This document shows positions 172-57,467 of a stretch of 64,000 nt of DNA, piece after piece. A model generated the notes under the pieces. The model had not been told where the DNA came from and searched no databases. It saw only the letters and a list, made by a program, of their open reading frames with translations. Every line of letters begins with the position of its first letter. Within the stretch, counting starts at the first letter, position 1. The position numbers and the translations under genes were made by a program. Source of the DNA: an uncultured bacterium (lineage in GTDB: Bacteria; Omnitrophota; Omnitrophia; Omnitrophales; Abzuiibacteriaceae); assembly GCA_964387845.1 (NCBI GenBank), contig CAYLXA010000011.1:1-64000 (forward strand). Direction: 5' to 3'.

Positions 172-3100
172 TTGGAAGGAATGTCGAATTATCCTCCGGC
201 AAGAATAATGAGATCACAAATTATTTTCCTCAAAGTTGTCGCCATCACGCTTTGTTTTACATTTTCGGTTACCAGCACAATTGCCTATGGCGATTCGTCT
301 GTCATCATAGAATCTTTCAAGCATAATGCATGGCACGTCACGCCCGCATTTCCGGGGAATAAACCTGCCCAACTCCTTGATTTTGCCCGCAAAGCCGATC
401 TCGTTGTTGCCAGCGGACGTGCGGAGCTTCGTGCAAAAGAGCTGCAAGCTACAAGCCTCAAGCTGCAATCTGATCCGTCCGCGCTGAAAGTCTTGAAGCC
501 TGAAGCTGAAGAATCCCGATCTGAATTGAGGAACGAAGAAGGTGAACTTATGAAACGTCCTCGCGCGCGGCGTGACGCTCGGGAGGACGCCGCTGAGATT
601 GAGCCCGCAGTTGAAACTGAGGCGGTGGTCCAAGCCGAAGACGCTGAAATCAATTACAACCATTTTGCGCAAAGAATTATTAATGAACCGGTGGGGAAAT
701 TGCTGATCGATAAATCTATGGTTGAACAGATCGGCAAGTTAAACGTACCGCAATTCAAACAGATGTTTTATATGGATGTGGGGGCACTCAATGCGTATTT
801 CGTCTTGTATACAATGATCAAGGAAAATCGGGAATTAAATCCGGCTATTCATGACCATATTTTGACGGAAGAAGCAAAGGAAAGGGAAAAAACGGCCGCA
901 GCGGACAAGGCTGTTCAAGCCAAAGCCCAGGAACAAGAAGTTACTGCCCGAGATACAGCTTCAAAAGTGAAGTTGGTTGAGAAAAAGCGGGCAAAGTCTC
1001 AGAAGAAAGAAGCCGGTATAGATACGATTGAACGTGTACAGCTGGCGCCGGTTGAAGCCACAAAATTGACGCAGGGACTTTTTAGGCGGACGTTATCAAA
1101 ATATAAACAGCTCTGGAAACAGATCAGACAAAATAATCTGGATAAGAAGGACCGTGCGTTGGTCATGGCGACAAACATTATGTTGCTGGGCGGCGCTGCT
1201 TTCAGCACGATGCTTTGGGTATCGACTGATTTCGGCAAATATGCCGCGTGGTTTGGATATTTATCAACCGTTTTTTTGAGTGAAGCCGGCCTGCCGCTGT
1301 TTGTTAATTTTGTGGGAACGATCGATGAAATGGTTTTGGATGTGAAGGCAGTCAACGCGACCGAACGATTTATCGAATCACTTGATCGCTTTGAAGAATT
1401 TTTCCGCCGAATGCCGTTAAATCCGATCACGGAAAAAGGTTTGATCAAAGGAATCCGGAGTTTGCCGGCTGAGATTCAGCTTGAGTTGAAGAAAATCTCG
1501 GAAGGCAAAGATTGGGATTACCGGAATCTTGAGAAGTGGTACGAAATCCGAAGAAATCAGGTTATCCGGATTTTGAGAAAAGCGGATCTTGTTATTCCTG
1601 GCGAATTGGAAAATGCGCCGGCTTGGCAGGAGGAGGAAAATGGTGGCAACCCAAGGGTTCATCGCGGCAAACTTCTAAAATTGGTTTCAGAAGCGGTTAA
1701 TGATTCACGCAACGCGAATCGGGTCGAGGAATATCGGAAATGGGCGGAAAAATACAAGAAGGCGCGGACATTATTGCGTAAGATCAAGGGCTTGAATGAA
1801 GAAGAGATGCACTTGCTCGCTGTTCAACTCACCACAACATCGTTTTACGGGCATCCGGAACTTGAAAAACGTCTGGTACGCGCATTCTCGCGTATCGAGA
1901 AACGCCAAAAAAACGCGGATCAGGCGGTCTTTCTTGACCGGGAAGAAGGAAGCAGTTATACATTCAGTGCGCAGGGCCTTGTTGATTACGTGGCCGCGCG
2001 CTTCAGATTATCGGAATCAGACTATGATCTGGAAATTGATCCGGTGCCGCCTGATTTTGTTAATCAGGTCCGCATCCGTTCCGAATTGCGCATCTCATTT
2101 CTTCAAAAACTAGCAATTATCACAACGTTACTGACCGCATTCTTTATCCCGAACACATCAAAAGCTTCGACCATTCCTGTCGGATTTATGCCGCCCATTG
2201 ACAGCGCTTACCTTCATTCAGAAGGCGTCAGAGAAATCCGAGACGATGAAAAAAATGTTTGGCAATATCAAAAATATTCCAACCTCGATATTTTAACCGC
2301 CGCCGCAGTTTTAAATGCGACGAGAGAAAGTCCAAACGCTTCAGTTGATGCTGGTGTGATTGGCGTTTTCAGAAATGAAAGGAAACCGCTTGAGGAGCGG
2401 ATCTTGGCAGCGACCGTTTTAATGCTTAAACAGAAGGATTTTAAGAAAGAAGCGGGTGACTTCCTGGTCAAAATTCTGCATGACGAAACCAAGCCCGGTC
2501 TTGACCGTACGATGGCCGCAGCGGCTTACGCGCGGCTCATTGACGAGTCCTCTCATAAAAAAACACATAAATTTGCTATGGATTATTTGGTACGGGTTCT
2601 TTATGACGCCGACAAGCCTTATGCAGAACGTTTATATGCCGCGTCAGCCTATGCGTTGTTCAAAGCAGGAAGAGATTACATTGACGGGCCTAATTATAAA
2701 ACAACCATTGAATATGCCATGAGCATTCTGGTCAGCGCATTGCATGATGAGGAAGCGCCGGTTTCTCATCGGCTGATTGCCGCTGCTGCTTACGCCGGGC
2801 TTGATGATATGAATTTCGGCGATACGCATGAATATGCTATTCGGTATCTCAAGCAGGTTTATCAAAATCCGAAATCTCAATTTTCAAACCGTGTTACAGC
2901 TGCAGCGGCGCTGCTTGCGGCGGATGAATATGATTCAGAAGACAAATTTCTGGCTCTTATGCTTCGTTTGCCGTCGTTTGATAAAAAAGGAAATGTTGTT
3001 AATGAAAGGACGCCTGTTGATTTGCTTGATGCGATTCAGAACGGTGCGTTAACAGATGCCGGTGCGCATGCGGTAAAAGAGAAATTAAAAACCATACTTG

Positions 3101-6100
3101 ATGAAGGCCGTTTGAACCATGACGTGGGTCTTTTAGTGCGTTACGCGGAGGTATTGGAAAATCCGACCGCCGTTGATTTTGCGGAAATTGTGAAACTGGT
3201 TAGTGCTGTGCTGCCTGATGAAGAAAATCGACTTGAGTTTTGGTTTGATATCGCCAAGAAAGTTCAAGATCCGGAAAAGTTTAATTTTAATTCTTACGTC
3301 TTAAAAAATCTTCTGACCGATCCCGTTCTAGATCCCGCTCAGGTCCCCGATCAGGAAATCATGGAATTCCTGATTAAGAATCATCCCGACCAAGAACTGC
3401 GCAAGCAGTTGAAAGTTCGCATGAAAGAGTCGCAGTGGCAAATGGTTAAGGGGACGCAGGTGGTATACCTTGCGCTGGTTTTTATGGTGGGTGTCGGAAT
3501 CAGCATCCAGCAAATGAAAGCCCGCCGCCGTTCCGAACTCAGAAGTATTTTGATTGAATTGTGGAATTCAGTCCAAACTATTGCACGTGATCCTATTTAT
3601 GGCCCGTCGTATGCGATTTGTTTCGGTTTGATGGCTTATATGGTAATTAAGTTTGGGCCGAGACGCGGCAGTTTCTTCCCGGGAAGTTCGCGGAATATAG
3701 AAAGAATGATCCGCGCAAAATTCAAGAATGCATCTCCATCAGATTTAGATCAAGCCCGGACGATTGTCAAAGAACTTCGGGATAAAATCGAAAAAAACCT
3801 GGAACGGCCGCATTTCGAAATACGCTATGTGCTTCCTGCGATTATTCAAAGTGCAAACAGCGTTGAGCAATTGAGAAAGTTTGTGGAATCCTTGGGCGTC
3901 TGGAAGGATGCCGGATGGTTTGATCGATTAATTGGCGGAGTTCTGCCTTTATCTTTGGTTGGACGCCTTGGTGAAGCACCTCTTTTAGTCGGAAATCCTT
4001 ATGAAAAGCCGGCAATTGAAAAGGCGATGAAAGGGATTGCCCGGGCTATTCAGAGCTCCGATGAATTCCGAGAAGGGTTTGAAACCGTTGTCATTTTCTT
4101 TGAAAAATTGAAGCAGGCAACTGCAAGAAAAAAATATTTTCGAAACGAAAGTATTATTTCTCCTCAAGTTGCTTGGGAAGAACTGCTCCAGAAAGCGCAC
4201 CAAATTCGGATGCAGCACGGCGATTTTACCGTTTCTTTTCAGCCGGAAGAGCGGGAGATCATTAACAATCGCTACACTGACAAAGTTCTGCAACACCAAG
4301 TAATTTCTGTCAATGAACCGAGCGTGGCTTCTGCGCGTTCCGTCCCAACTCACAATAAAATGCCGGGAACGTCTATTGATGGGAAAGTTGGGACGGCTCA
4401 GACTTCCGATGAAAATTCGTCAGGTTCTTCAATGAAAGTCAGGGCCGAATTGCGGCAGGCGAGCAGCCGCATGCGCGCCAAGCAGGAACGTTTATTTACC
4501 GAGCGCGCGGCGAGCCGGCGTATTGCAAGAATTGACCGATGGTTTCAGCATTATCATGATGATTATGACATGAACTGGAACCCCGAATTTTTTGCGAGTA
4601 AGCACGAAACATTCCTGGACCGTATCAAAACACAATTGCGGGATTTTGAAATCGAGAACGAAGCTATTGATATCGCGATAGAACAATCCATGTCAATTTT
4701 AATAGCGGGCGTTCCCGGCGGCATCATCCGCGCTTTCCTCAAGCGTTTTACGAACATGGTGCATCGCCATATTTACGGCCCCGTGGCGGTAGAAGAAATC
4801 AATGACCGCATGCGGCATTTTAAAGAAAGAATTGATAGAAGTCTTGAATCCGCCGCCAGCCTCGATGAAAGGCGCCGCTTGATGAAAGGTTACCGCTTAA
4901 AGCACGGCTATCTTTGGATAGACAATGTGAGGACAAGTTTTGAGGAACTTCCGGTTGATCATTCTACCGCATCTACCGTGAAAGTGATCGGCCCGCGTGA
5001 AATGAAAATCCATCAAATTGCCGGCTACTTCGAAAATATTTTGCACCGCAAGAGAGGATTGCTGACGGATCAAAAAGACCATGAAATTCTCAAGTTTCTT
5101 GTCGGCCGTTTAACGGATTCTGACCCTTGGGTGGTAAAGGCGGCAGTGTGGGGGATTAACCGTATTGCGGACCGGATGGATCCCGTGCTCAAACAATTTA
5201 TTTTGGAGCGTTACTATGAAATTCTGAGCGGCAATCACAGTGAAGTTGCCCGGGGCTCTATTGCACGGTCCATCCGTGAAGTTTTTAACCCGCAAAGTTT
5301 GGATGTCGCACTTGAGATGTTGAAAACGGAGCAAACCGAATGGGTGCAGACTTACCTCGTTGAGGTCATTCAAACCATTGTGAGCCAATCCGATAAAAAA
5401 TCACTCCGCTACAAACATTCCCGCGACATTATCGAGCAGCTGCTTGAGAAGGCGGTCGGTGATCCTGACGCAAAAAGATCGCACATCATGCTGCGCGTCG
5501 GAAGCATTAAAGCATTGGCCGAGCTTTTATGGTATGACCCTGAAGTTTTGGACCGCTTGAAAGAAATGGTTTTAACCGAGCCGGATTCTACCATTCAAGA
5601 AGCTGCAATGTGGGCACTTGCAAGATTGCATGTGGCAACGCCGGAAGGGATGGCTCAGATCGATTCGTTGCTAGAAACTTTGACGGCATATCTGGAAAGC
5701 AGTCATGCAGGCCGAAAAAACGTTTTCTTAGAACAATATGCCAGACAGCTTCTTTTTTGGCTGCAGCGGCTTTCGTCCAATCGAGATCTGAAAGCAAAAA
5801 TTTTATCGATGAAGCGTACGAATCCTGATTTTTCTTTGACCGAGAAAATTATTTTAGGCGCACTGAACCAGATTGAAAAATATACAAAGAGATTGAAACT
5901 GCTGGAACATGCAAATTGGATTTTTGAGTTGTTCCAGAGTGCGATTTTTAGGCGCGCCCGCTCAGGCTCAGCCCGTACATTAACAGCGTATCATGACCGA
6001 TTGAAAGCACAGGCCAAACGTGACGCGGTTTATTTCAGCGGTCGCGCGATGAATCCGGTTATTTTACTCGACATCGATGCGATTCTTCCGAAAGAGGGCG

Positions 6101-9100
6101 ATGAAGCCGCAAAAGCATCTGAATCCGACCACGTTTTCGATATTTTAAAATCGTTTATGGATAGAGGCTGGAGCGTGGTCGCGACAGACCGGTATCGCGA
6201 AGAGCGTGATGCAGCTCACTTCAACGTTGCCCAGGGCGCCGAAATGAAATTAAAAAGCAAGGTGCTCAGGCAAGCCATCAAATTTTTGGCGTCAAACCGC
6301 CCGATCCGTATTCCTTCAAAAGACTGGTCGCGGGGCAAGCGGCATCAGCGCATGTCCGGCCTCTTGGTTCCTGTTCCGGACGAACCGATTGTCGTGCTTG
6401 TACACGGGCCGGAACTTTGGATGGTGAAAGACATCATGCCCGGCACTTTTTCGGGAATCGTATCGGTTGGTGATTATAAAGATGCTTCTAACGGTGTCTA
6501 TTTAGACAAACTCATTGACGCCATCGAAAAGAAAGCCAACGGCCGGATTGTTCAGCGTGAACCGTCACGTTCTGAGCTGCGGCATGGGCCTGAAGATTTT
6601 GTCAGAGACGAAACCGCGCGAATGGTTCGTGAGCTGGTCGGCACTTTCTACAAAAAATCTGTTTATCCTTTCGCGCACGAAATCGACAAAGGCAATATAC
6701 GCATTGAAGATCAAATTTTAGAGGAAGCGGCCCAGGCGGGGCTTTTCGGCCTCGCGATTCCGGAAGAGTTTGGCGGCTCGGGCCTCAGCCCTATTTTAAA
6801 AATCATTGCCGACATCATCGGCTGGTATATCAATCCTTCCGTTGCGCTTTCGATCGGTGTTCACAATAGCGTTGTCAAAGGGCCGATTCAAGATTACGGA
6901 ACGGAGGAGCAAAAAAAGAAATATCTCACGAAACTCGCGAGCGGTGAATTGATCGGCGGCTATGCGCTCACAGAATTGGAAGCCGGGTCCCAGGCATTGA
7001 GCAAGCGGTTTCCACTCCAGACGACCGCTGTCCCCGTGGAAGTCGACGGAAAACAATACTACAAACTAAACGGAACCAAACGGTTTATCACGAACGCCCG
7101 TTTTGCCGGTGTTTTTGTGGGTTTTGCGATGCTGGGTGACGAGCGAAGAGTATTTATCATTGATCGTGACTTGGAAGGTGTTTCGGTCGGAGAGGACGAG
7201 CAGAAAAGCGGTTTAAAAGGTTCTTCGACCGCGGATTTAATTTTGCAAGACGTTTTGGTTCCGGCTGAAAATCTGATCCCGGGAGACGGGATCAAAATCG
7301 GCATGTCTACCATGAGCCAGGGGCGCCTCAGCATCGCCGCAAGCGCTTTGGGCGGAAGCATGCGGATTTTTGATGATACGCTGGAATATTCGAAATTGCG
7401 CAAACAATTCGGCGGGCCAATTTGGCAATTCGGCGGCGTTAAGCAAACTCTGGCGGAAATGGCCGCGGATCTTTACGCGCAGGAGTCCGTTGTTTATGCG
7501 GTCGCATCTCTGCTGACCGAAGGCAAAGTGAATGCGGCATTTGAATCGGCGGTTGCCAAAGTTTTCGTGACGGAGAAATTTAACCACATTGCCCAGAAGG
7601 GCGTCAAAACACACGGCGGCGCCGGTTACATTTCGGATACGCCCACGGCGCGCATCGGCCAGGATGCGATTGTTACTGAAATTTTTGAAGGCATGAATGA
7701 TGTGCTTTATTCGAACGTGATTGCAGCCCTCTATCTTAAGAAATTGATGACGGAAGGCAATCAGGTGCTGAACATCTCGGATTACGGCCAGTTTTATCCG
7801 GAAATCCAAAAACTTTCGAGTTTAATCGGGCAAACCGGTAAAGTCATTCTCGGAAAATTCGGAACGCTCACGCCGGAGAATCAAGATGAGTACATGGCAT
7901 TCGGGAAAATGGCCTCCGAATTTTACGCAATTGTGTCCGCAGTGCGCAGGACCCGGAAAATAACATCAGAAATTAATCCGGATGACCCCAAACTGAAGCA
8001 TTTTTTGGATGTCACACGGCTGGTTGTAGCGAGAGGCACTAAACGGATCCGCGATGAGGCGTCTCATTTTGTAGATCCGGATGTGTTCGGCGTTTCTTCC
8101 GACCAGCGTAAGTATTTTGAATTAACCCGCGGCATTGCGGAACATCTCGTTGTCAATCCGCCGAAACGCATTGTTGAATTCAACGCCTCAAACGAAAGTC
8201 AGTCAAGCCGCGCCGAGCTTCGTCTCGATCCCGTTTATCTTGTCGATTTGACAGTGTTTGGCTTGCTTGCCATTTTACCGTCTTGGTTTGCGCTTAAACT
8301 GACAACCGAGCGCTATGCTAAGCGAACGATCGATCAGCTATATTCGCCGGCGGTTCAAGAAGAGATGGATGCGAATCGTTCTTTCAATGTCAATTTTTTA
8401 ACATTTTTTTATGACCGGGCAGTTCATTGGGTCCGGTTTCTTGTAATATCATTTTTGCACGGTTTTAGTGCATGGGTAGCCAGCTATTACGCTTTCGCCA
8501 TGTATTATCCGGCGGCTTCAATTTTTTGGCCTCTTGTTGCGGCTGCGGCTGCATTTGGCGCTTCCGGTGTTTCTTTATGGATTCGCGACAAAAAGCAGGT
8601 GCGGCAAAAAATAACTGTGGCTGCACAAATTCCGGCCAAGCAAATTCACGGAAAGTTTGAGCTGAATTTTGATTTGGTTTTTGGCTTTGATTTACGCGAA
8701 CTTTTAGACGGTAAAACAGGGGAAGAGCAAGCGCTTCAAAATTTACGGGCAAAAGTAGAAGAGCAGGTGGAGAGGATCGCCGCAAACAAGGGCGCCGTTC
8801 CCGCCGAGGTGGGAAAAGTTTTGGTTCCGGTGACGCCTGAAAGCTTTGCGAGCACAGGACCCAATTTCAAAGTGGAGGGCCTTCGCGGCCAGTTTACAGT
8901 TCGCATCCCTCGAAGCAATATCAATACTATGCACTCTTTTCCGCTCAATGTTACGTCCGTCTATTTGGGCGGCCAAAAAATCGCGGTCGGCACCGTGTTT
9001 TTCGAGAAAAATAAAGATGCGCGCTCAGAGTTGAGGTCCGAGGGTGCAGCAAAAAGTGCTTTTTCGAATTTCTTAGCGAGTGTGCCGGAAGATTCTGAAA

Positions 9101-12100
9101 AATGGAAGAGTTTTTTGCGCGAGCAGCTAGCGCTTTTTGCAGCCGAATGGGTTAAGCTGCCAGGGGAATTGCAAAATTTTTTCCCGGAAGAAACGCATTT
9201 ATTTCAGGAATTTACGGCTGATAATATTCCGGCGGTCAATTTAGACAATTTCTTTAAATTAGCTGCCGTGCGCGATGCCGTGGTTGATTTTATGCCGAAG
9301 CTTAACCAAAGCAGCTCTCTTCCGCAAAATGCCGAAGCCGTTCAGATCCCGGGTTTTAACGGTGCGCTTCTGGATGGCTGGGTGATTCGCGCGGCTGACA
9401 GCAAGCAAGAAAATCATCCGGCGTTTCTGATTTTGCCGCCATGGGGCGATGATATCTCAAAATACGGAAAGCTCGCCGAACTTCTTCATCAAGAGTTTCC
9501 ATCTTTTCATGTGATTGGTTTGGATTACACCAAAGATCCAAATCTCGAAACCATTTTGAATACCGGCGGAATCGCAGAAAGTTTTGATATTGAAGCGGTG
9601 ATTCGCGCGCTTTCCAGATTTTCCGATTTGAAGATTGATCCGTCCAAAATCACGGGCATCGGTTATTCGATGGGCGCTAATACTTTGGCGATCCTGCAAA
9701 AGCGCACCGGGCTTTTGTCTCATTTTGTGCCAATCGGGCTGCACGACAGTTACGCCTCCGTGCTTGCCGGCTATTATGAGAATGTCCATATTCCGCGCAT
9801 TGCAAGAATCGTTACACGCCGGGGCTATTCATTCATTGATTGGACTGACCCAATGATACGAGAGCATGCCAAGCGATTATTGATTGAAGCCAGGCTTCGA
9901 ATGAACCAATTTACTATCGCAAGAAGGGAAATTCCTGTTAAGCCGGAGGATGATCCGTTTTTAGATTTGGCAGAAACCGCATCATCGCTCCAAATTCCGG
10001 TTCATTTTGTATTTGAAGAGGAGTCTGATCTGTTACAGGAAAGCGTTCGTGATTTTTACCGCGCTCTGGCAGGGCAAATGAATGAATCAGGCCGAACGGC
10101 GCAATACAACACCTATCCCGGAAAGCACAACAAGATTGATCCGGCATCTTTGGTCAGCGATCTCAAAACTTTTCTGACCTCTCGTTCCGAATTGACTTCG
10201 GCTCGAGCGGAGCCGAAGACTATTTCGGCATCATCGCAGAGCGCGATGATGTCCGAATTGCGGAAGCAAAATCATTTTATTTTGTTTGTGGCTGGGAGCA
10301 TTTTGTTTTGGGCGGGCTGCTTAATGACGGAGCAAAAACCTGTCAGCGAAATGCCCGCGGAAACGCCAATTGAACAAATCGCCGAAACTTCCGAACCGGT
10401 TACAAACGCACCGGCCGATGATATAAGTGAGCCTGCCGAGATTCAGAAGCAGCCGCGCGCACCGCCCAAAAGTGAATTTGAGACTTTGCTTGAAGCTTTA
10501 GAAACAGGAAATGACGACGAGCGCTGGGATGCCGCCAAGACGCTCAGCCGTTCCGCCAACTCTGCCGCAAGCGGCACATTTTTAAAAGCGCTTCAGGATT
10601 CCAATAGTTTGGTCCGCCGCGAAGCCATTATTTTCTTCCGCTATCACCATGATCCGCGAGCACCGAAAGTTTTGATCGAGCTTTATCGCAAAGAACTCGA
10701 TTTGGGCATTCGATCCGACATTGTCGAAACATTGGGAATTTTGCAGAGCGCCGAAGCCGTTTCGTTTCTAATCCAACGGATCAAACGGGAAGACGGCGCC
10801 GCTTTCTATGTTTTAAAACGCGCGTTGGTCCGTATCGGCGTTCAAGCGATTGAGCCGCTTATCGATGCGATTCGCTTTGAATACAACAAAGAATTGGCCG
10901 CTAAATATGAAGAAACCCTTCGGGAAATCTTCAGAAATCCGGACGCTGCCGAACAGCGCAAAAAAGCGGAGAAACACTGGTACGAAGCCGTCCGCCGCGC
11001 CGCGCTCGGAATTACCAGCCGTTCAGAGCTTCGTAAATTTCACGAACCAAAACCGCAAGCAAGCGGCGTGGACGCGGGCATTTATATTGAAGGGTTAGAG
11101 AAAGTAATTCGGGCGAATCGGTTCAGCGCGCTTCGCTATGACCGAACGAAAAAGCGCTGGGTCATGACTTCCATTTTGATAGATGGAAAGAAGCGCAAGG
11201 GCCTTCTGCTGTCTAGGAAGCAACTCGATGGAGTTAATCTTGCTTTTAGTACGCTTCATCAAAAACTACAAAAGGAAATGACGGAAAAGTCGAATGCACG
11301 CATCATTTTTGTTAAAGGTTTGATGCCTATATTGGGAAACCACATGCCTTGGGTTCAGCGCCCGGCCGGCCTGAGCGGTTTTTCGAAGCCGGATTTTATT
11401 CTTGACCGCAATGCTGCTTACAATCCTCTGGCTTTGTTGGATCAATTTGAATATGAAATCCGGCGTAAGCGCTTGATGGCCGGTCAATTTTCTCCTGCGG
11501 AGAAAAGAGAATTAATCAGAAACCCAAACACTTTTGATTTGCGCGTTAAATTCAAGCAGGTTTATCTGGAAGCTCATGCTCAGTTGATTCAGGATAATGT
11601 TATAAATTCCAGAGATGAGCTTTCGTTCTACGATTCAACCCAGAGAACGCGCCTGCTTGAGCTTGTGATTTTGCAAGCTGCGCAGGAAGCGACCCAAGTT
11701 CGTTACCGGTCTGTCGAAAACGCTTTAAAAGCACTTGATGAGGCAGCCAAGGATGGAAATCATTCAGGACATCAAGTCGCAATTGGTATCTTGGCCTTGC
11801 ATGCATCTGACATTGCAGCCCGATTAATTAAAAAATCCGATAATGAGTCAATCAAGATCGCCGCACTGGACTATATTGCATCGGCGCTTATTGATCAAGA
11901 TACAGCTTCCCCAGCAATAGAGATTACTGGTGGCCTTCATCATGAAATCCGAAATATTCTAACCAATTCTAAAAACCCCCGGCTTAAAGCTGCCGCACTT
12001 CAACTTTTCACAGTCTTGATTTATGTTCAGCTAGTAGATTCGAACGAGAAGCTTAATGCGCTTGAATATCATTATGCCAATCTCGAACTGGTGATCAGAA

Positions 12101-15100
12101 GCCTGATTCCAACTATCCGTCAAATGGCGCTGACGGAGAAGAACGCGCTCTTAAGATCTCATGCCATTATTTTCTTTCTCGCTCTGTCTTTGCGGTATCC
12201 TCAGTTCAGAGGAAGCCGAAGGACGTTAAAACGCTTAGCGCCCGAATTGGAGCGGTATGTGCTCGAAGGGAAGGATTCCAACATGACTCAAACGGGTATT
12301 TTAGTTCTTGAGCATCTTTGGCGTCAGTTAGACAAAAATCCGGAGCGCTTCGAAACATTTATCAGCCGGTATATTTTCGGAGAAAACCATGCGCCGACCG
12401 GAATTCGGCGTACTGAAACTTATTGGGCGGGCAAATTAGCGCACTCCGAAATCTCGGAAAAGATGCCGACTCTGGACCGGATTCTGGCTAACAATGATCA
12501 GTTATCTCGTTTTCTCACTTTTCTTTCCGTTATGCGGCTTGCTTATCCTTATAGCATGATTAATGGTAGTTATGAGCGCCCGATTGCTTGGGCTAAGAAG
12601 AACCAAAAGATTTTTAAGCTCGACGAGCTCCGCATTGCGTTTGTCAGTGAATCATACCGCCGCCATATTATTTTTACGGAAGACCAAAGTCTTGCACTCG
12701 AAATAAAATTCCCAGGCGAACGCGCTTCAAGCGGCGATGTTTCGAAAATTCACGTGACATTGGCCGAAAAGTTGCGGCAGCAGCCTAAGGGTGAAACGGT
12801 GGTCAGCGAACCACTCTTTTTTATAGGTTTGAAAGGGTTATTCAATCTTTATGGCCCCCGGGAAACCTCGATTGAATATAAAGAATTTCCTTTGGGAATT
12901 GTGGGGTTCCGGTATCAAGACTCGAAACGTTTGCGTAATGTGCTTGAAGATAAAGAATTGTGGCAAGCATTTGTTGAGGAAGCTTATGGGCCATCGGACA
13001 AGTATCAACAAAAGGCCTATGTGCGGATTGCTGCGGATTTAATTATTTTTGCACTCAAGATTCATGAATTGGGTTATCAGGCCAGCACGCGCCGCCTAAC
13101 GGATCTTCACCTTGAAAATTTTGCGCTGTTGCCCGACGGCCACGTTTTTTCCGTGGCTGATTTCGGAATTTATTCCCGTAGCGGCAGCCGTTTAACCAAA
13201 TTCCGTAAAAGAAAAGAAACAAGCGGCCTGCTTGCTGCATTAACGGCTTACAAAAGCAGTCTCATTAGCGCTTGGGACAATCCGACATTTGTCATGGAGG
13301 TCGTTGACGCTGTTTTGGTTAAACTTTTAACAGGCGTTACCGATCCGGCAGAAAGAACAGAAATCATTCTGCGTGTCTTTGGGGAAGTGCGGGATATTTT
13401 TGAAAAAGTCGGCATTTCACCGCTATTCGAGGATGCGCTTGTGCGGGCTTGGGATGTTAATCAAGAGCCGGATGGATATGAAGTCCGTCAAAAAATTGCA
13501 AAATCCATCATTTCCAGATCGGTTATCGCTATTGGAATCGCATCCGATGCGTGGTCTGCGCTTCGATACGACAAAGATCAAGAAAGATTGATTACATCAC
13601 CGCTTCCGGACGATCTTGTGCATCGATTCTGGGATCATCCGGAATTGTTGCAACCGCTAGAACCGGTATTGCTAAGTGATAAAGAAGTTAATCTTCTCGA
13701 TAAAGCTTTCAAGCTTCTGCCTGAAGTGGATCGAAACCAGTTTACGTCGGATCCTAATTCTATGATCGTGTTAATGAAAGGAATGGATGCGCACATTGCA
13801 GAATCAACGATTGATTTCAAAAGATTGACGAACCCGCACGCCTATCACGACTTGGTGTCACCGCGTTTCTTTTTTGACCAGCGGCTGATCAAAGACCCGT
13901 TTGAATTCATGAAAATACTTCACAACGAGATCAAACTGCGGAATGCGATTCTTCAGAGTTTAACCGAAGATGAAATCGCGATGCTAAAAAACCGTCATTT
14001 GCCGGCTGAGCTTCAATCGAAAATCATGAAAAAAACACAGGAAACCAGAGATTTGCAGTGGGACACTTACTTTCGATCAGCCGGAAAGCAAGAACCCAAT
14101 CAAGAACAATTAAGTCTTTTGGAGGACCTTATTGTCTATGGTGCGCAGGATCATTTGCATAAAACATTCGAGTCTCCCGCAGAAGCTTTGTTGGCATTAG
14201 CAAAATCATTAGGAGAATTGAAAGGCGCTCAAAAGAAACGAACTCAAGATTTTCTATTTTACATTCACAACGAAATTTTATCTTTGATTCTGCTCAATCC
14301 AGATGCGGACTTAGATTTAAGAATATCGGCGGTTGTCTATGAGATAGAAAAGGCCAAGTTAGAATCGTTTGCGCTTTTGACTGCCGAGCCATTGGCACGG
14401 CATTTGGAGCGTATCTACGACCGGCATAAAAACGTCCGGCTGCGTGTTGTAATTCTTCGCTTCCTAGCAATTGTTCATGAGCAAGTTGAGCGGGAGATGA
14501 GAGATAATTTAAAGTCAGGGGACAATTTAGTTAAAACTCGTTACGTCGTCGAATCGATTGCCTGGAGGATGGCAGTCGGCGTTTTGAAAAACAATAAAAG
14601 CAAACGTGTCGAAAAGGAGATCGTTAAACTTTTGCTGCAGCTTTTACGGCCTTATGCCGCGGTCTCTCAAAAACCGAATCATGGGCAGTTACGTCTGCTT
14701 CTTGAGGAGGCTGTGATTTACATAAACCAGAATATCGAAAAAGATCCTTCAAAGGAAAAAAACAAGCTGCTTGCCCTGGCAATTTTAAGCAGGCAGATTC
14801 CGATTGCAAGCGACTATTTGGAAGCTGCGCTATTGCGGTATATTTTCGATTCAGATGACATTAAAGGAATACGGATGCGAAAGTCTGGCTATCCGGCGAG
14901 CGATGCTATTCAGCCTTTTGAACAAAGCATGCCCACGCTTATTCAAATATTGAAAAACAAGCAGTATTTAGCGCGTTTCATGGTTGCGCTCAGTATTTTG
15001 CGTGAAGCTTTTCCGTACCACGTCCCCAATTCGCATGATTTTAATGAAGACCTGCTTGAAACCGTAGAAACCAGTGGCGCCGTGCGGCTGAAAGAGCTCT

Positions 15101-18100
15101 TAATCGCGCCGCTTATGCATGAATATTCAAGCCACTTGGTTTCCACAGAGGACGGCCGCAATGTTTTGCGGCTGGTGATTCCGGGCGATTCTGTGCGGCA
15201 TTTTAGTAACCATCTTCGGAAAAATCATGTAGGCAAAAGAAATTTATTATTTTTTATTCCCATCCTCGGCGTCCCATTTTTGTATGGAGCTCTGGATTCC
15301 CATCGACTTTCGGGGTTTGCGGGTTACCGGGAACGCGCCAGTGAAGGTTTGACCATGAAAGAAATCAGAAGGCGTGAAATGATGAATGATCGGATTCCAT
15401 CGTTGGTCAGGACGATCTTGACGCACTTTGGCCAGAAGTATGATGCATCGGCGCTTCATGAAGCATTGGTTCGTCAGGATGTCAATCAGATCACAAAACT
15501 CATCTTCAGCGATGAATATTATCAAGATTTCAAGCAATGGCTGCTCAATTATATGCGGAACGTTTTTCATATGGAAGAAAGCGAAGTTCCGGATGCCTTC
15601 CGGCGTGCTTTAAAACAATACTTTGAGAAGAAAGAATCGCTAGGCCGCACAGAAGCAGCCGTAAAAAAATCAGCAGAAGGAAGCGACGCTCAATCAAAAT
15701 CCCGTTCAGAGCTCAGGGCAGGTGAGTTGTCCGCGGAAGTCCAATTGGCCAATGAGATCACCAAAGCCGTCACAAATTTTGCATTGTGGAAATCATCGGA
15801 ACACAAAATGTCGGTCTCTCGTCAGCAAATGCAAGGCTATAGAGATGCGCATCGGGAAGCGGATGCTTTGGTTAAGGCCGGAATCAAAACTTTGTTACTT
15901 TCCAGGGAAAGGGCAAAGCTCATTCAAGCTCGAACTGCAGTTCAACAGGCTATGAACCAGAGCGGCGTGACGGCAAAGGCAAAGAAAAGATACGAGTTTT
16001 ATATTGGGTTGCTCAATCAAGCCACCGAAAATCGTTCCGTCCCGACTCACAATAAAACGCCGGATCAGACTTCCGTTGAATATCCTCGCAATTCTTCAAT
16101 GAAAGCCAGAGCCGAGTTGCGTTCGAATCAAGCGTATCTTTGGAAATCGAAAATTACATTGGAATTGGCAAGCCCGGCCGGGAAGCCGGACGCTCCTAAA
16201 CGGTATATATTTGAAATAGAAGGCCGCAAATTCATGACGTTCGATGATCCTGATTCGGCCATTGAAATTGTGGGCGAAAGAGCGACCGATCTTGGTGTGC
16301 ACGATCCTTTTCTCAGTATTATGATCACCGAATTGCTGCCGTGGATTTTTGTTGAAAGCTTCAAAAATAGGAGGGTACGCCAACCAGACGGAAATTTTGC
16401 GCTTCAATTTCCGGAACTTGATTCCGGAGAAAAAGATATATTGGAAAGCGAAGTGCAGGTTGCTTTTGGTATTGGGAGTCAGCCGAGTTATGTTGCGTTT
16501 GGCCCCCGATGGTATCGCTTACCCGAGCGCGAATCGATTAATCAGATTGTCAATCAGGCCACCGATAGTTTTGCAGGTGATGATTCAATCGAAAAGCGTG
16601 CAGTGCCGGCTTTGGTGACTTTGGTCAAAGTTTTGAATGACGAAAGCCGAAGCGATGTTGAAACTTACATCGAACAGAAATTTGGTCCGCATGAATTCTT
16701 AAAACGTATGCTGACTTCCGAGAGAGTTACAAAAAACACTTTTTTTGATTTTGTCCGCCGTAATTTATTTTTGGAGCGGATCGGTGAAAAGTGGTTTCCC
16801 TACGGCCTATATACAGATACTAGGCGGTCTGAGCTAAGGCATGATTTTCGCTTTCTCCTAGGAATAGAGCGCGAAGAAGAAATGCAGAAAATCTTCGACA
16901 AGATTAAGCGGGGAGATTCCAACGACATCGAGCAAGCCTTAGGTTCCTTGATTGATTTTATCGGTACGATTCCCAATTTTTTAGATGACCGAAAGTGGGC
17001 GGAATTAAGGAAGTGGATTGCCCGGAATGTGGTTGGCAGCATCAATGTTTCATCTTTTAATACAGCCGGTATTCAAGATTTACTTATCCGTTTTTACAAT
17101 ATCCTGCCGGGCCCTACGACATTGGCTCTGTCTGCTTCGCTGGATGATGAAACCGAATTTGGTGAGCGCATATTTATATTAACTTTCTTATTAGCGGGTA
17201 TTCAAGAATCCGAAAACATAGCAAAGGTTGTATTGCGCAATCGTGTTTTTCAACGAGAAGCAAGCCGGCCAAAAACCGATAATGAAGCCCAGCTTTTTAA
17301 TCAAATTCACCAAGCAATCGATAGAAAAATTAAAGATCAGGCTTCGCCTAGCCCGGCTGCCGGGGAATTATCCGACCCACGATCTGAGCTTCGGATTGCG
17401 TTTACGGATGAGCTTCATCCGGAATTGTTAAGCAGGGAATTTGCAGACGAAAATTCGATCCGAAACAATTTAATAGAGGTTATGAGCGAGCCCAAGACTC
17501 GTGTGGAACTGTTGGGAATTAAAACAGGCGAGTTCATTCAGCGCACGATGGGCAAGATGCAGGTTGTTTTCGAGAAAACCGGCGAACGGGTCGATTCCCT
17601 GACGGGTGAACATGTTATAGAAATCGAATTTAATGTGATTGCGACAAAAGTTCATACCGAGTCCGGAACTATCGAAGCGCGAACGAAACCAAACAGCCGG
17701 TTGTTTGAAGGGCTAAATGCCGGTATCGTGCCGGAAATTAAAATTCGTTTTAACACGGCAATGACGAACGGGATTCGTGCGGTCAATGCGCGCCACGGGG
17801 AAATGGACGAAATTTTCGCTTCTCAAGTTCCGGATTTGGCGAGCGGTTTGGAACGTGTCGGACCCATTGCGGGCCATGATCTTATTTTCGGTGAGGATGG
17901 ATCGCCGCTTTTTGCGGAATATTTTCTTAAAAGATTCGGCGTTCTGGCCGTCGTTACGAGTTCACAAGCTGAAGAAGACTTTTTAGATCCGATCCGGGAT
18001 GACTTACAAAACGGGGAAGTGTTGATTGTCGCTCAAAGTTTTGAAGAAGCGCGCTTGGAACTTAGGAAAAGGGGATTTACGAATCAATTATTGCTTGTTT

Positions 18101-30167: not shown

Positions 30168-30689
30168 ATGAAGTTGAATCAAAAATTATTGTCAGTGTTT
30201 TTATTATTCGTGTTTGTTTTTGGATTGGCCAAGGCGGGTTTTTCGGCTGAACAGAAAATCGCTTATATCGATATCGGCAAAGTGTTCGATGAATACGAAA
30301 AAACCAAAAAGTTTGACCAAGAACTTCAGGAAGAAGGGAAAATCAAGCAAAAGGAGCGCGATGAAAAGGTATTGGCGATCCGAAAGCTGAAAGATGAGCA
30401 GGCTATTTTGTCGGATGAAAAGAAGAAAGAAGCCGACGTTAATATTGAAAAGAAACTCAGAGAGCTCGAAGAGTTTGATCAATCAATCGGGCGCGAACTA
30501 AATGCAAGACGCGACAAGGTTGTTAAGGAAATTTTTCAGGATATCGACGGGCTTCTCAAACAATACGGAGAGCGCAAAGGTTATGACTTTATTTATAACG
30601 ACCGCGCACTCGTGTACCGCAATCCGAAATATGATAAGACCGACGAAGTGCTCAAAGAATTGAACGAGTCGTATAAGAAGAAAAAGTAA
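30168..30689 (+). CDS. skp: periplasmic chaperone Skp/OmpH
   Basis: Signal peptide plus a Lys/Glu-rich coiled-coil body; position between bamA and the lpx genes. Confidence 0.85.
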   Translation: MKLNQKLLSVFLLFVFVFGLAKAGFSAEQKIAYIDIGKVFDEYEKTKKFDQELQEEGKIKQKERDEKVLAIRKLKDEQAILSDEKKKEADVNIEKKLRELEEFDQSIGRELNARRDKVVKEIFQDIDGLLKQYGERKGYDFIYNDRALVYRNPKYDKTDEVLKELNESYKKKK

Positions 30690-32050
30690 TGAGTGAACAC
30701 CAGAAGACCATTCGCAAGCCGATTTCCTTAGAAGGTAAAGGGATTCACTCCGGGAAATTAGTCCATATTTCGCTGAAACCGGCGCCCGCCAAAAGCGGTA
30801 TCCGTTTTACGCGGACGGATATTGACCGCTCCGAACAGGTTGCCGCATCGGTGGAAAATGTTCATCAAGATCACGGCCGTCAGACGTCAATCGGCACAAA
30901 GCGATGGAAAATCCTGACAATCGAGCATCTGATGGCGACGCTGCACGGTTTACAGGTCGATAACTTATTAATAGAAGTCGACAGCGAGGAATTGCCGGCA
31001 TTGGATGGAAGCTCCAAGCTTTATGCCGATGAGATATTGAAGGCCGGCCTCGAAGAGCAGGATGCCGTTCGCGAATATCTGAACCTTACGATCCCGATAT
31101 TTATTCAGGGGAAAGACTACTCGCTTGCGCTTTTTCCGGCTTCTGAGTTATCAATTTCTTACACGCTCAGCTACGGTCATTCCGATTTGAGCGAACAATT
31201 TTACACAACCCTCATCACACCCGAGATTTTCCAGAAAGAAATCGCGCCGGCGCGCACGTTTTGCCTCAAGGAAGAAGCTGAAATGCTCCGCAAAAGCGGT
31301 TATGGAAAAGGTGCCGACTTTGACAACACGCTTGTTTTCGAGAACAATAAACCGATGAATAACCAGCTTCGGTTTCCAAACGAAGCGTGCCGTCACAAAA
31401 TTTTAGATTTGCTGGGTGATTTATATTTGGTCGGGCAGCCGTTTAAAGCGCATGTGATCGCTTGCCGCACCGGCCATGCACAGAATTACGAATTAGTCCA
31501 AAAGCTTTATGATTTACGCCTGACGGCTGCGAGGTCTGTGCCCGCTGCTTGCAATCAGCCGATTTCGGAAAGCGGCAAATGCGGCCAGGCCATGATTAAA
31601 AAGATCCTCCCGCATCGCGATCCATTTTTGTTTATCGATCAGATTCTCGAAATGGAACCCGGAAAGCGGATTGTCGGCATCAAGAAAGTGAAGCCCACCG
31701 AATTTTTCTTTCAAGGGCATTTTCCGGGCCATCCCGTAATGCCCGGCGTGTTGATTATTGAAGCGCTTGCACAGTGCGGCGGATTTTTGATGTTGTCGAA
31801 GCCGGAAAATCTCGGAAAAATTGCATACTTTATGACTATCGAAAAAGCAAAATTCAGAAAACCCGTGTTTCCCGGCGAGGAGCTTCGGTTAGAAGCGGAA
31901 GTGATCCGCGACCGTATCCGCACCGGCGAATGTTCGGGCAGGGCCTATGTCGGCGAGAATTTGGTCTGCGAAGCCAGCGTGCGCTTTGCGGTTGTGGAAG
32001 CAAACACCAACGGGAGCCCTGAATCCGAGCCGAGCATTAAAGGTGATTGA
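30689..32050 (+). CDS. lpxC-fabZ: bifunctional UDP-3-O-acyl-GlcNAc deacetylase / 3-hydroxyacyl-ACP dehydratase (LpxC-FabZ fusion)
   Basis: N-terminal LpxC (KTIRKPISLEGKGIHSG..., HxxxD zinc site) fused to C-terminal FabZ hot-dog (ILPHRDPFLFIDQI...GHFPGHPVMPGVLIIEA). Confidence 0.9.
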   Translation: MSEHQKTIRKPISLEGKGIHSGKLVHISLKPAPAKSGIRFTRTDIDRSEQVAASVENVHQDHGRQTSIGTKRWKILTIEHLMATLHGLQVDNLLIEVDSEELPALDGSSKLYADEILKAGLEEQDAVREYLNLTIPIFIQGKDYSLALFPASELSISYTLSYGHSDLSEQFYTTLITPEIFQKEIAPARTFCLKEEAEMLRKSGYGKGADFDNTLVFENNKPMNNQLRFPNEACRHKILDLLGDLYLVGQPFKAHVIACRTGHAQNYELVQKLYDLRLTAARSVPAACNQPISESGKCGQAMIKKILPHRDPFLFIDQILEMEPGKRIVGIKKVKPTEFFFQGHFPGHPVMPGVLIIEALAQCGGFLMLSKPENLGKIAYFMTIEKAKFRKPVFPGEELRLEAEVIRDRIRTGECSGRAYVGENLVCEASVRFAVVEANTNGSPESEPSIKGD

Positions 32051-55414: not shown

Positions 55415-55430
55415 TTTGAAATTTGAAACT

Positions 55431-57467
55431 ATGCGACACATCCAGGTTAAAGATCGTCAGCTTCAGTTCGGCAACAAAAAAATCCCCCTTATCAGCGGCG
55501 AAGTTCATTACTGGCGCCTCAATCCCAGCTACTGGAAAGCCATTCTTACCAAAGTCAAGGAAATGGGCCTTGATATTGTTTCTACCTATGTGCCGTGGGA
55601 TTATCACGAATACAAGCAAGGCAAATTCGATTTTCATGGCAAAACGGATGAAACCCGCAATCTCGTAAGCTTTCTGGAGTTAACACGCAAGATGGGTTTT
55701 TGGGTCATCATCCGGCCCGGTCCTTATATTTACAGCGAATGGCCGAATGACGGCATTCCTTCTTACGCCTATAAATATCACCGCCTTCATCCCAAGTTCC
55801 TGGGATACGCCGAAAATTATTTAAGAAAAGTCACCGCCGTCATCAAACCATATTTGGCATCGCGTTCCAAAGGCCACATTGTTCTTGTCCAAGCCGACAA
55901 CGAAATCGATCCGTGGCCGGATGCATTCGGGCATCAATACGGACTTGCCGGAAAACCCGGCATGTTCCAGGAATTTTTGAGCCGGCGTTACGGCGGCGAT
56001 ATTGATTTGCTCAACCGAAACTGGAAAACCGAATACAAAAGCTTCAACGAGGCCGGCCCGTTTATTGCTTGCATGATGAAAGATGAGCGCGGGCTTCCTT
56101 TAAAGGGTGATAAAGAACTCCGCCGAAATCTTGATTATTTTGAATTCAAATATGATTACGCACATCAGTGTGCCAAATGGAATATCGAGATATTCCGCAA
56201 GCTCGGCGTCGATGTTCCGCTCTATTTGAACCTGTATCCGTTTTTTTATGCCCACGATTGGGCGCGCATGCAGTCTGAAAGCGATATGGTCGGAGTCGAT
56301 CTTTATCCTTCCAATGAATTAATGGAAGATGAGCATGAACACCGCAAGATGGTTGACAAGATCCGATATTTAAAGAGCATTTCGAAAGTTTCTTATATTG
56401 CCGAATTTGCCGCAGGTGTCTGGCATGCGCGGCATTATGAATCCGGTGTCCTGATGCCGAATCACTACCGCCTGATCACACTTTCCGCTTTGCAGGGCGG
56501 TGCGGCCGGATGGAATTGGTATATGCTCGTCAATCGCGACAATTGGTACATGTCGCCCATTAACGAATGGGGAAGGCCGCGCGCCGAGCTTTATCACGTT
56601 TTCAAAGACTTGGTTCATCTTTATCGCGAACTTGATCCGCCGTCATTGGAAAAATTAACGAACATCGCTGTGACGTTCAATCCCATTCAATATGCGGCGC
56701 GCACGATGCCGGTCGAAAGCCAGATTTTGACGGCGCTTTATGAAGCTGACCTGGATTATGAATTTATCAACCCCGAAATTGGATTGAGCGACAAGCCGAT
56801 TCTGTTTTATTCCGGTAATCAATGGCTCGGCAGGAAAGCGCAGAATAATTTAAGAAAGTACGTGGAGAAAGGCGGTATTTTGGTGGCATTCCGCAATTTT
56901 CCGAGAAAAGATGATAATTTCGAAACCTGCGATATTTTGGGCTTTGAGGAACCCTCCCGGATTTTATTTGAATTCCGTAGGAAGTTTGTCATCAAGCTTG
57001 ATAAAAAATCCAGCGCAGAAGCGAATAGCTCGGTTTTTAGTTATGATCACTGCAGCGGCAAACCGGTCAAGGTGGATTTTGGCAATTACGGTTCCCATAT
57101 CATCGGTTATGAGAAAAAAGTAGGGAAAGGCACGATTTTCCACTTGGGCGTGGAACCGACGAAGGAAATTATTCTGGCTATCCTTAGCTATTTCGGAATT
57201 GCGATTTATACCCATACGACTACGCGCGATGTTAAAACCAGCTTATTTCGGAAAGGGAAACGTTTTTATTTGATCGCGGTCAATAACGGAAAAGAAGACA
57301 AAAGCGCCGTGGTCGAATTGGGCCTCCCCAACGGGCGGGTCAGGCGCGTCAAAGCTACCGACCTTCAAACGCACGAAGAAAAAGAATATGTTTGCCATCA
57401 AGGTGTTTCGGTAAATGTCGATATTCCTAGAAAGGACGGCAAGGTCTTAGAAATCACTATTAAATAA
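55431..57467 (+). CDS. GH35-like beta-galactosidase family glycoside hydrolase
   Basis: TIM-barrel GH35-like motifs (…VSTYVPWDYHE…, …IIRPGPYIYSEWPNDGIP…, …QADNE…). Start ATG 55431 (MRHIQVK…). Confidence 0.6.
   Translation: MRHIQVKDRQLQFGNKKIPLISGEVHYWRLNPSYWKAILTKVKEMGLDIVSTYVPWDYHEYKQGKFDFHGKTDETRNLVSFLELTRKMGFWVIIRPGPYIYSEWPNDGIPSYAYKYHRLHPKFLGYAENYLRKVTAVIKPYLASRSKGHIVLVQADNEIDPWPDAFGHQYGLAGKPGMFQEFLSRRYGGDIDLLNRNWKTEYKSFNEAGPFIACMMKDERGLPLKGDKELRRNLDYFEFKYDYAHQCAKWNIEIFRKLGVDVPLYLNLYPFFYAHDWARMQSESDMVGVDLYPSNELMEDEHEHRKMVDKIRYLKSISKVSYIAEFAAGVWHARHYESGVLMPNHYRLITLSALQGGAAGWNWYMLVNRDNWYMSPINEWGRPRAELYHVFKDLVHLYRELDPPSLEKLTNIAVTFNPIQYAARTMPVESQILTALYEADLDYEFINPEIGLSDKPILFYSGNQWLGRKAQNNLRKYVEKGGILVAFRNFPRKDDNFETCDILGFEEPSRILFEFRRKFVIKLDKKSSAEANSSVFSYDHCSGKPVKVDFGNYGSHIIGYEKKVGKGTIFHLGVEPTKEIILAILSYFGIAIYTHTTTRDVKTSLFRKGKRFYLIAVNNGKEDKSAVVELGLPNGRVRRVKATDLQTHEEKEYVCHQGVSVNVDIPRKDGKVLEITIK

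Follow-up and report, generated by a model that had tools for sequence, protein, structure and literature searches.

The giant open reading frame and its hydrolase module

The 64,000-nucleotide stretch of contig CAYLXA010000011.1 (assembly GCA_964387845.1, from an uncultured bacterium of the Omnitrophota), which we refer to as the window, carries on its forward strand a giant open reading frame (ORF; positions 172..18249) of 6,025 codons with a TTG start and no internal stop. The database copy of the encoded protein (P0001) begins at Met13 and is 6,013 amino acids long. The giant protein contains an N-terminal signal-like leader, several transmembrane (TM) segments, and ACAD, HEAT and hydrolase modules, and its sequence suggests that it is made of about 15 modules, or cassettes, with the short peptide R-[S/A]-E-L-R between them. 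Here we describe the alpha/beta-hydrolase module of this protein together with the peptide that delimits it, and weigh what the module might hydrolyze.

The module as analysed spans nucleotides 9040-10251 (404 amino acids), and the features of the module and its delimiters given here all lie on the forward strand. Directly upstream is a copy of the delimiter, R-S-E-L-R, at 9022..9036 (ORF residues 2951-2955). The segment between this copy and the hydrolase core (9040..9309) encodes a conserved, family-specific N-terminal sub-domain of ∼90 amino acids that is modelled as helical. The core together with its lid occupies 9322..10179 (module residues 95-380) and is predicted to contain eight strands, at module residues 99-104, 110-116, 126-132, 157-162, 199-209, 228-232, 321-326 and 354-359. 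Strand 3 is followed by P-P-W-G (9436..9447), which includes the invariant Trp3091 (TGG, 9442-9444). The nucleophile elbow G-Y-S-M-G is encoded by GGT TAT TCG ATG GGC at 9661..9675, in the frame of the giant ORF and exactly where an earlier reading of the DNA made from the sequence alone (the sequence-only reading) had placed it; its serine is the invariant Ser3166 (TCG, 9667-9669). Between strands 6 and 7 is a predicted helical lid or cap insertion (9751..9987; module residues 238-316) with helices at residues 238-260, 271-295 and 310-316. The acid loop E-E-E-S-D after strand 7 (10015..10029) contains Glu3282 (10015-10017), Glu3284 (GAG, 10021-10023) and Asp3286 (GAT, 10027-10029), and the G-K-H-N loop after strand 8 (10120..10131) contains His3319 (CAC, 10126-10128) and, directly after it, an Asn, both of them invariant.

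The C-terminal edge of the folded domain coincides with a degenerate delimiter, R-S-E-L-T (10183..10197), whose alignment column reads RPELR and RSELR in two of the homologous proteins described below (P0002 and P0003, respectively). Seventeen residues further on is the next delimiter, M-S-E-L-R (10249..10263), and directly after it a lipoprotein-signal-like stretch, KQNHFILFVAGSILFWAGC (10264-10338), opens the following HEAT module. The range of 9350-10140 proposed for the hydrolase by the sequence-only reading does span strand 1 to the His loop, but the whole module is larger (9040-10200). We also considered a basic lid that would bind CoA or an anionic lipid, and rejected this idea because the charge of the lid is approximately neutral and not conserved.

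Evidence for the alpha/beta-hydrolase fold

For profile searches and structure modelling we used an alignment, A1, of the four available sequences of the module. Searched against the PDB, the A1 profile matched the PET46-like esterase 9pjb (E = 6.4e-8), the lipase PaL (8yzo; 2.6e-5), the esterase Pf2001 (5g59; 9.6e-5) and a feruloyl esterase (1.5e-4), with matches running through the nucleophile elbow, while S9 peptidases were found at 6e-4 to 2e-3. Pfam searches with the family members identified Abhydrolase_6 (1.6e-7) and Abhydrolase_1 (2.1e-5). The module does not qualify as a hormone-sensitive-lipase-like enzyme (Abhydrolase_3), since its score for that family is below threshold and its oxyanion region reads P-P-W-G rather than H-G-G.

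AlphaFold2 run with A1 gave a model with a pLDDT of 78.3 and a pTM of 0.80, in which eight strands alternate with helices in the canonical order; when run on the single sequence it reached a pLDDT of only 39. The elbow (module residues 208-212) is modelled between the strand at residues 199-209 and a helix at residues 211-223. From the C-terminal delimiter onwards the model is disordered, with pLDDT values below 50 from module residue 390. Taken together with the conserved Ser-His-acid set discussed next, the profile matches and the eight-strand model bear out the original assignment of this region as an alpha/beta hydrolase, and on these sequence and model data we regard the fold as secure.

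Predicted catalytic residues

The pentapeptide GxSxG is not significant by itself, since about 1.0 occurrence is expected in the giant protein from its composition and two are present, the second being GVSVG in the ACAD module. Conservation is more informative. Pairwise identity to the window copy ranges from 22 to 43% in A1, and only 32 columns are invariant; these include, in module numbering, W135 (Trp3091), G208, S210 (Ser3166), G212, E326 (Glu3282), H363 (His3319) and N364. Ser3166, invariant in the four homologues, comes immediately after strand 5 in the model and is followed by a helix. His3319, likewise invariant in all four, follows the strand at residues 354-359 by four residues, within G-[KM]-H-N. 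Module position 328 (Glu3284) is E, D, D and D in the four family members, and the invariant E326 stands at the end of strand 7. From the alignment and the model, the acid of the triad is most likely Glu3284, with Glu3282 as the alternative. The sequence-only reading had pointed to Asp and His candidates downstream of the elbow; the His stands, whereas the Asp that was probably meant, Asp3286, is Gly in all three homologues and we rejected it as the triad acid.

A hidden Markov model alignment to the PET46-like chain pairs Ser3166 with Ser115, Trp3091 with Phe39 and Met3167 (module Met211) with Met116. In PET46 the backbone amide of Phe39 forms the oxyanion hole and Met116 is the second oxyanion residue (PMC10495362). 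Asp206 of PET46 aligns with module position 329, but with a low alignment score. In the model, Ser after strand 5, acid after strand 7 and His after strand 8 is the canonical arrangement for this fold, and both the register and the conservation of these residues are consistent with a catalytic triad. The catalytic competence of the module is thus well supported by alignment and model.

The contrary view, that the module is a non-catalytic alpha/beta-fold scaffold or pseudo-enzyme, could appeal to its very divergent sequence, to the absence of a Pfam match for the window copy and to the ambiguous position of the acid. However, Ser, His, both elbow glycines and the Trp of the oxyanion hole have all remained invariant at identities of 22-43%, and the proposed position of the triad acid is always acidic, with an invariant Glu two residues earlier. 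The conserved Ser-His-acid set speaks against a scaffold, which we consider the least probable of all the explanations weighed here.

Distribution of the module

In an exhaustive phmmer search, only four of 1.84 billion representative proteins proved to carry the module, namely P0001 and three clear full-length homologues, all of which are large multi-module proteins. Three further weak phmmer matches covered part of the lid region only. The closest homologue, P0002 (5,133 aa), has 44% identity to the window module (E = 5e-95). The second, P0003 (4,004 aa; MBI4388473.1), is from a groundwater metagenome-assembled genome of Candidatus Omnitrophota and shows 28% identity, and the third, P0004, is a multi-enzyme protein of 1,653 aa with 25% identity. 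In collections of genome, metagenome and viral contigs, matches to the module were returned only from the contigs of P0003 and P0002. The module family is, judged by its sequences, a small and very divergent branch within the known alpha/beta-hydrolase superfamily. We noted that P0003 has, in addition to the divergent module, a second and canonical alpha/beta hydrolase at residues 2029-2299 (Abhydrolase_6, E = 3.7e-24), and the NCBI name of this protein, 'alpha/beta fold hydrolase', is probably owed to the latter.

The four carriers have little else in common. A BLAST comparison of the window protein with P0002 revealed as common regions only the hydrolase (44% identity) and a 33-residue N-terminal leader: the hydrophobic leader of P0001 (window 208-306, beginning MRSQIIFLKVVAITLCFTFSVTSTIAYGD) is 42% identical to residues 1-33 of P0002. 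P0002 and P0003 have in common, besides the hydrolase, an additional module with 35% identity over 436 aa that by eye resembles a DHH phosphoesterase. BLAST detected no other region shared between any of the four carriers.

The delimiter peptide and its variants

The giant ORF has R-[S/A]-E-L-R in 14 exact copies, where 0.04 would be expected, as well as in a few degenerate forms. The exact copies begin at nucleotides 418, 517, 2077, 3529, 4441, 6568, 8209, 9022, 11020, 15703, 16108, 16825, 17380 and 18217 of the forward strand, and neither the other five frames nor the rest of the 64 kb contains any. Since the codons of the copies vary synonymously, the motif appears to have been selected as a peptide; this variation, together with the empty other five frames, led us to reject a DNA-level repeat. 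Conservation is confined to the five-residue core, and the next residue is usually small, mostly S, A, T or N.

The same peptide is present in otherwise unrelated giant proteins, with nine copies in P0002 and eight in P0003, where it flanks recognizable domains. For example, the ARMT1-like domain of P0003 (residues 2484-2810) is flanked by copies of the motif at 2432 and 2841. R[SA]ELR flanks the hydrolase module at both ends in the window protein and in P0003, and at the C-terminal end only in P0002. P0004, encoded on a JGI contig of 5.2 kb, has not a single R[SA]ELR; it has instead six copies of SSP[VIL] (residues 219, 597, 631, 638, 1339 and 1468) against 0.08 expected. These bracket its module, two of them coinciding with the exact module borders that R[SAP]ELR marks in the remaining three proteins. 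The delimiter peptide thus seems, from these sequences, to differ between lineages, and R[SA]ELR is a candidate processing or linker signal. A literature search for 'RSELR' returned no relevant publication, and nothing relevant was found in the literature on Omnitroph* and polyprotein.

Several further observations concern the surroundings of the motif. A longer linker, RSVPTHNK[MT]P...SSMK[VA]RAELR, occurs twice in the giant protein (window ∼4339-4455 and ∼16036-16122; ORF residues 1390 and 5289). The doublet beside the hydrolase, RSEL[RT] followed after ∼17 residues by AMMSELR, has a close counterpart in P0002, NRSELRQ...PAMMSELRT. Signal-peptide-like or TM stretches start right after some of the motif copies (window 10264-10338, 2092-2170 and 8224-8300), as in MMSELR|KQNHFILFVAGSILFWAGC, which is lipobox-like, and RSELR|ISFLQKLAIITTLLTAFFIPNTSKAS. 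If the protein were cut at or before the motif, these signal-like stretches would be N-terminal export signals of the freed pieces.

Ester or peptide hydrolysis

The explanation that we favor is that the module is a lidded carboxyl- or thio-esterase or lipase, catalytically competent and carried as a cargo cassette in a multi-enzyme giant protein, probably of the Omnitrophota type; on the alignment and the model we consider it probable as a whole, and ester hydrolysis, taken by itself, likely. Ser3166 would act as the nucleophile with His3319 and Glu3284 (or Glu3282), the oxyanion hole would be formed by the backbone of Trp3091 and Met3167, and carboxyl- or thio-esters would be hydrolyzed by the standard acyl-enzyme mechanism, with the helical lid giving the acyl or alcohol pocket its shape. 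The module would be portable between proteins.

An ester or thioester substrate is favored by several lines of evidence. Esterases and lipases lead both the profile and the fold rankings, ahead of peptidases by ∼10^4 in profile E-value and by ∼4 Z units in the fold ranking. The elbow, GYSMGA, is nearly identical to those of Pf2001 (GFSMGA) and PET46 (GLSMG). The solved structures nearest to the module are those of carboxylesterases and lipases with a lid, and a helical lid is predicted here too. There is no S9-type gating domain: neither a beta-propeller nor any other gating domain was found, the core being preceded by ∼90 helical residues and the module being bounded by the delimiter at 9022-9036. 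These points bear directly on the possibility that the module belongs to the serine peptidases of the alpha/beta-hydrolase clan, as an S9/S15/S33-like exo- or oligopeptidase acting on peptides other than the giant protein. In the profile search the PH0594 acylaminoacyl peptidase was matched at E = 6.3e-4 and FAP and DPP4 at ∼1e-3, and prolyl tripeptidyl peptidase ranks fifth in Foldseek. Against this, the window module falls under every peptidase threshold in Pfam: it has no match to Peptidase_S9, for which the best homologue reaches E = 0.021, and none to S33/Hydrolase_4, for which one homologue reaches E = 0.011. We therefore think a free-acting peptidase of this kind unlikely, and a peptidase of any kind only slightly less so.

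Several points weigh against our favored explanation and temper it. The window module alone was not recognized by Pfam, the best match being Abhydrolase_3 at E = 0.27 (11.4 bits against a cut-off of 25 bits, and over the elbow only), and it had no significant match in a phmmer search of the PDB and none in NCBIfam. The structural model is based on an alignment of four sequences, the triad was judged by register and conservation rather than by three-dimensional distances, and the identity of its acid is ambiguous between Glu3284 and Glu3282. The separation between esterases and peptidases is modest, and in Pfam two of the four homologues have weak Peptidase_S9 matches (best E = 0.021) and one a Peptidase_S15 match at E = 3.6e-4. 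We infer an ester rather than a peptide substrate, and a cargo rather than a processing role; the latter rests mainly on P0004 and on precedent, both discussed below. Finally, the module is probably on the cytoplasmic side of the membrane, but this placement derives from hydropathy and the positive-inside rule only: the module itself contains neither a signal nor a TM segment, a cassette of approximately three TM segments with a basic stretch after its last helix precedes it, and the lipoprotein-like signal KQNHFILFVAGSILFWAGC opens the cassette that follows.

Does the module cut the giant protein?

The sequence-only reading had raised the alternative of an S9/S33-type peptidase that cleaves the recurrent motif in cis. 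In its general form this proposal is that the giant ORF encodes a true polyprotein, cut at R[SA]ELR by the alpha/beta hydrolase acting in cis or in trans. No other protease domain was detected in the giant ORF or in the remaining ∼46 kb of the window, motif copies adjoin both edges of the module, and one study of Omnitrophota giant proteins reports that their cleavage points and processing enzyme are unknown (10.1101/2023.11.21.568195). Furthermore, the module is the only sizeable element common to all three R[SA]ELR proteins identified here. This last point proves nothing, however, since all of these proteins were found through the module. Three carriers combine the module with 8 to 14 copies of R[SA]ELR, and the fourth has none.

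P0004 provides a main argument against the proposal. It has the module but no R[SA]ELR, and SSP[VIL] stands at the module borders, so that module and motif are decoupled. The module appears, from these sequences, to travel independently of R[SA]ELR and to be bracketed by the delimiter of whichever protein hosts it, like any other cassette. Precedent is also lacking, as we know of no alpha/beta-fold peptidase that processes polyproteins, those known being exo- or oligopeptidases (MEROPS clan SC). In addition, the closest structural neighbors of the module are esterases; in the profile search, esterases score ∼10^4 better than peptidases; the matches to S9, S15 and S33 models are marginal; there is no gating domain; and the C-terminal tail that bears the motif is modelled as disordered rather than docked in the active site. 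The rarity of the module, with four carriers in 1.84 billion representatives against hundreds of long multi-enzyme Omnitrophota proteins surveyed, also counts against the proposal, but weakly, since it would matter only if the surveyed proteins carry the motif. On balance the self-processing idea found no support, and we regard cleavage of the giant protein by this hydrolase, in cis or in trans, as highly improbable. If it were nonetheless true, the module would be, to our knowledge, the first alpha/beta-fold endopeptidase to process a polyprotein, and it would fill a gap noted in published work on the Omnitrophota giants, namely the rule by which they are cleaved. That R[SA]ELR is instead a site cut by another protease, which would free the hydrolase as an esterase, is much more likely, though we lean slightly against it.

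A link to lipid or acyl metabolism had likewise been suggested from the ACAD and 'kinase-like' modules of the same protein, and in its most specific form the hydrolase would be an acyl-CoA thioesterase or lipase that partners the ACAD two cassettes upstream. The ACAD is bona fide (ORF residues 2147-2519, E down to 7e-32). However, none of the three homologues shows BLAST similarity to the ACAD region, Pfam recognizes no ACAD domain in P0003 or in the part of P0002 that was searched (residues 746-5133), and the neighbors of the hydrolase module differ in every homologue. Even in the window protein a TM-rich cassette and two copies of the delimiter separate the ACAD from the hydrolase, and the 'kinase-like' segment has no Pfam or PDB match. 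Since no partner module is conserved across the homologues, the acyl-unit idea is without comparative support, and we consider a partnership with the ACAD quite improbable.

Comparison with known systems

Pf2001 of Pyrococcus furiosus is a characterized esterase/lipase (PMC2967836). Its structure (PDB 5g59) shows 13-15% identity to the module, and the two differ in organization: Pf2001 is a free-standing protein of 274 aa, whereas the module has an additional N-terminal helical sub-domain of ∼90 aa and a longer lid, and is set in a protein of 6,025 aa. In addition, the module has P-P-W-G where an H-G normally precedes the oxyanion residue. In comparison with PET46 and other lid-bearing feruloyl esterases (8b4u / 9pjb, GthFAE 7wwh and Est1E 2wtm), the acid loop reads E-E-E-S-D rather than H-G-D-S-D, such that a Glu displaced by one residue probably serves as the acid of the module. 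No evidence points to aromatic-ester substrates for the module, and its protein context is also different. Relative to the S9/S15 catalytic domains of acylaminoacyl peptidase, DPP4/FAP and prolyl tripeptidyl peptidase, the module lacks the gating beta-propeller of S9 enzymes and is below the Pfam thresholds.

The MARTX toxins offer a conceptual analogue, in that an alpha/beta hydrolase is carried as cargo in a giant multi-module bacterial protein with short processing sites between its modules. Those toxins include a cysteine protease domain that cleaves after Leu, as well as RTX repeats, neither of which is present in the giant protein described here, and the ABH effector domain (RtxA, PDB 6imp) gave a weak profile match (E = 0.018) without significant homology. 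The giant protein resembles published Omnitrophota giants (the 'Archaeovorins' and the 'multi-enzyme metabolic cluster' class) in its multi-enzyme content, HEAT repeats, TM segments, leader and downstream sugar ABC permeases, but is far smaller, at ∼6 kaa (thousand amino acids) versus the 10-147 kaa reported in surveys of that phylum. Term searches of the Omnitrophota giant-protein papers returned no mention of an alpha/beta-hydrolase, esterase or lipase module, or of a delimiter motif.

Significance of the module and its delimiters

With four members among 1.84 billion representatives, and a window copy that lies below Pfam detection, the family is of interest mainly as a marker. The same cassette occurs in otherwise unrelated giant proteins with the same borders, set by a short peptide that is specific to the lineage (R[SA]ELR or SSP[VIL]), which provides direct comparative evidence for giant proteins assembled from shuffled, delimiter-bounded cassettes. 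This architecture is a more unusual finding than the hydrolase itself. R[SA]ELR is also a concrete candidate for the processing sites missing from the literature on Omnitrophota giant proteins, and the module, being enzymatically tractable and easy to assay, would be a convenient reporter for the cleavage of such proteins.

Other features of the giant gene and its surroundings

For the largest cassette of the giant protein (window 11035-15702; ORF residues 3622-5177), neither Pfam nor the PDB gave a match. The cassette is made up of two units of ∼700 aa that are homologous to each other (24% identity over 617 aa, E = 1.8e-22) and not separated by a delimiter copy, and it holds the kinase-like D-L-H-x-x-N ... 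D-F-G string to which the sequence-only reading referred.

The genes around the giant gene, at window 18965-63574, are ordinary core-genome or housekeeping genes. Among them are those for two sugar-ABC permeases, GlmU, Prs, L25, Pth, SSB, L9, DnaB, BamA and Skp, as well as LpxA, LpxB, S2, EF-Ts, LeuRS, KdsB, CTP synthase and KdsA. No protease or mobile-element gene was seen in this region, and there is no rRNA in the 64-kb window. An LpxC-FabZ fusion is encoded at 30689-32050 and a GH35/42 beta-galactosidase at 55416-57467, and four tRNAs lie within the same 18965-63574 interval.

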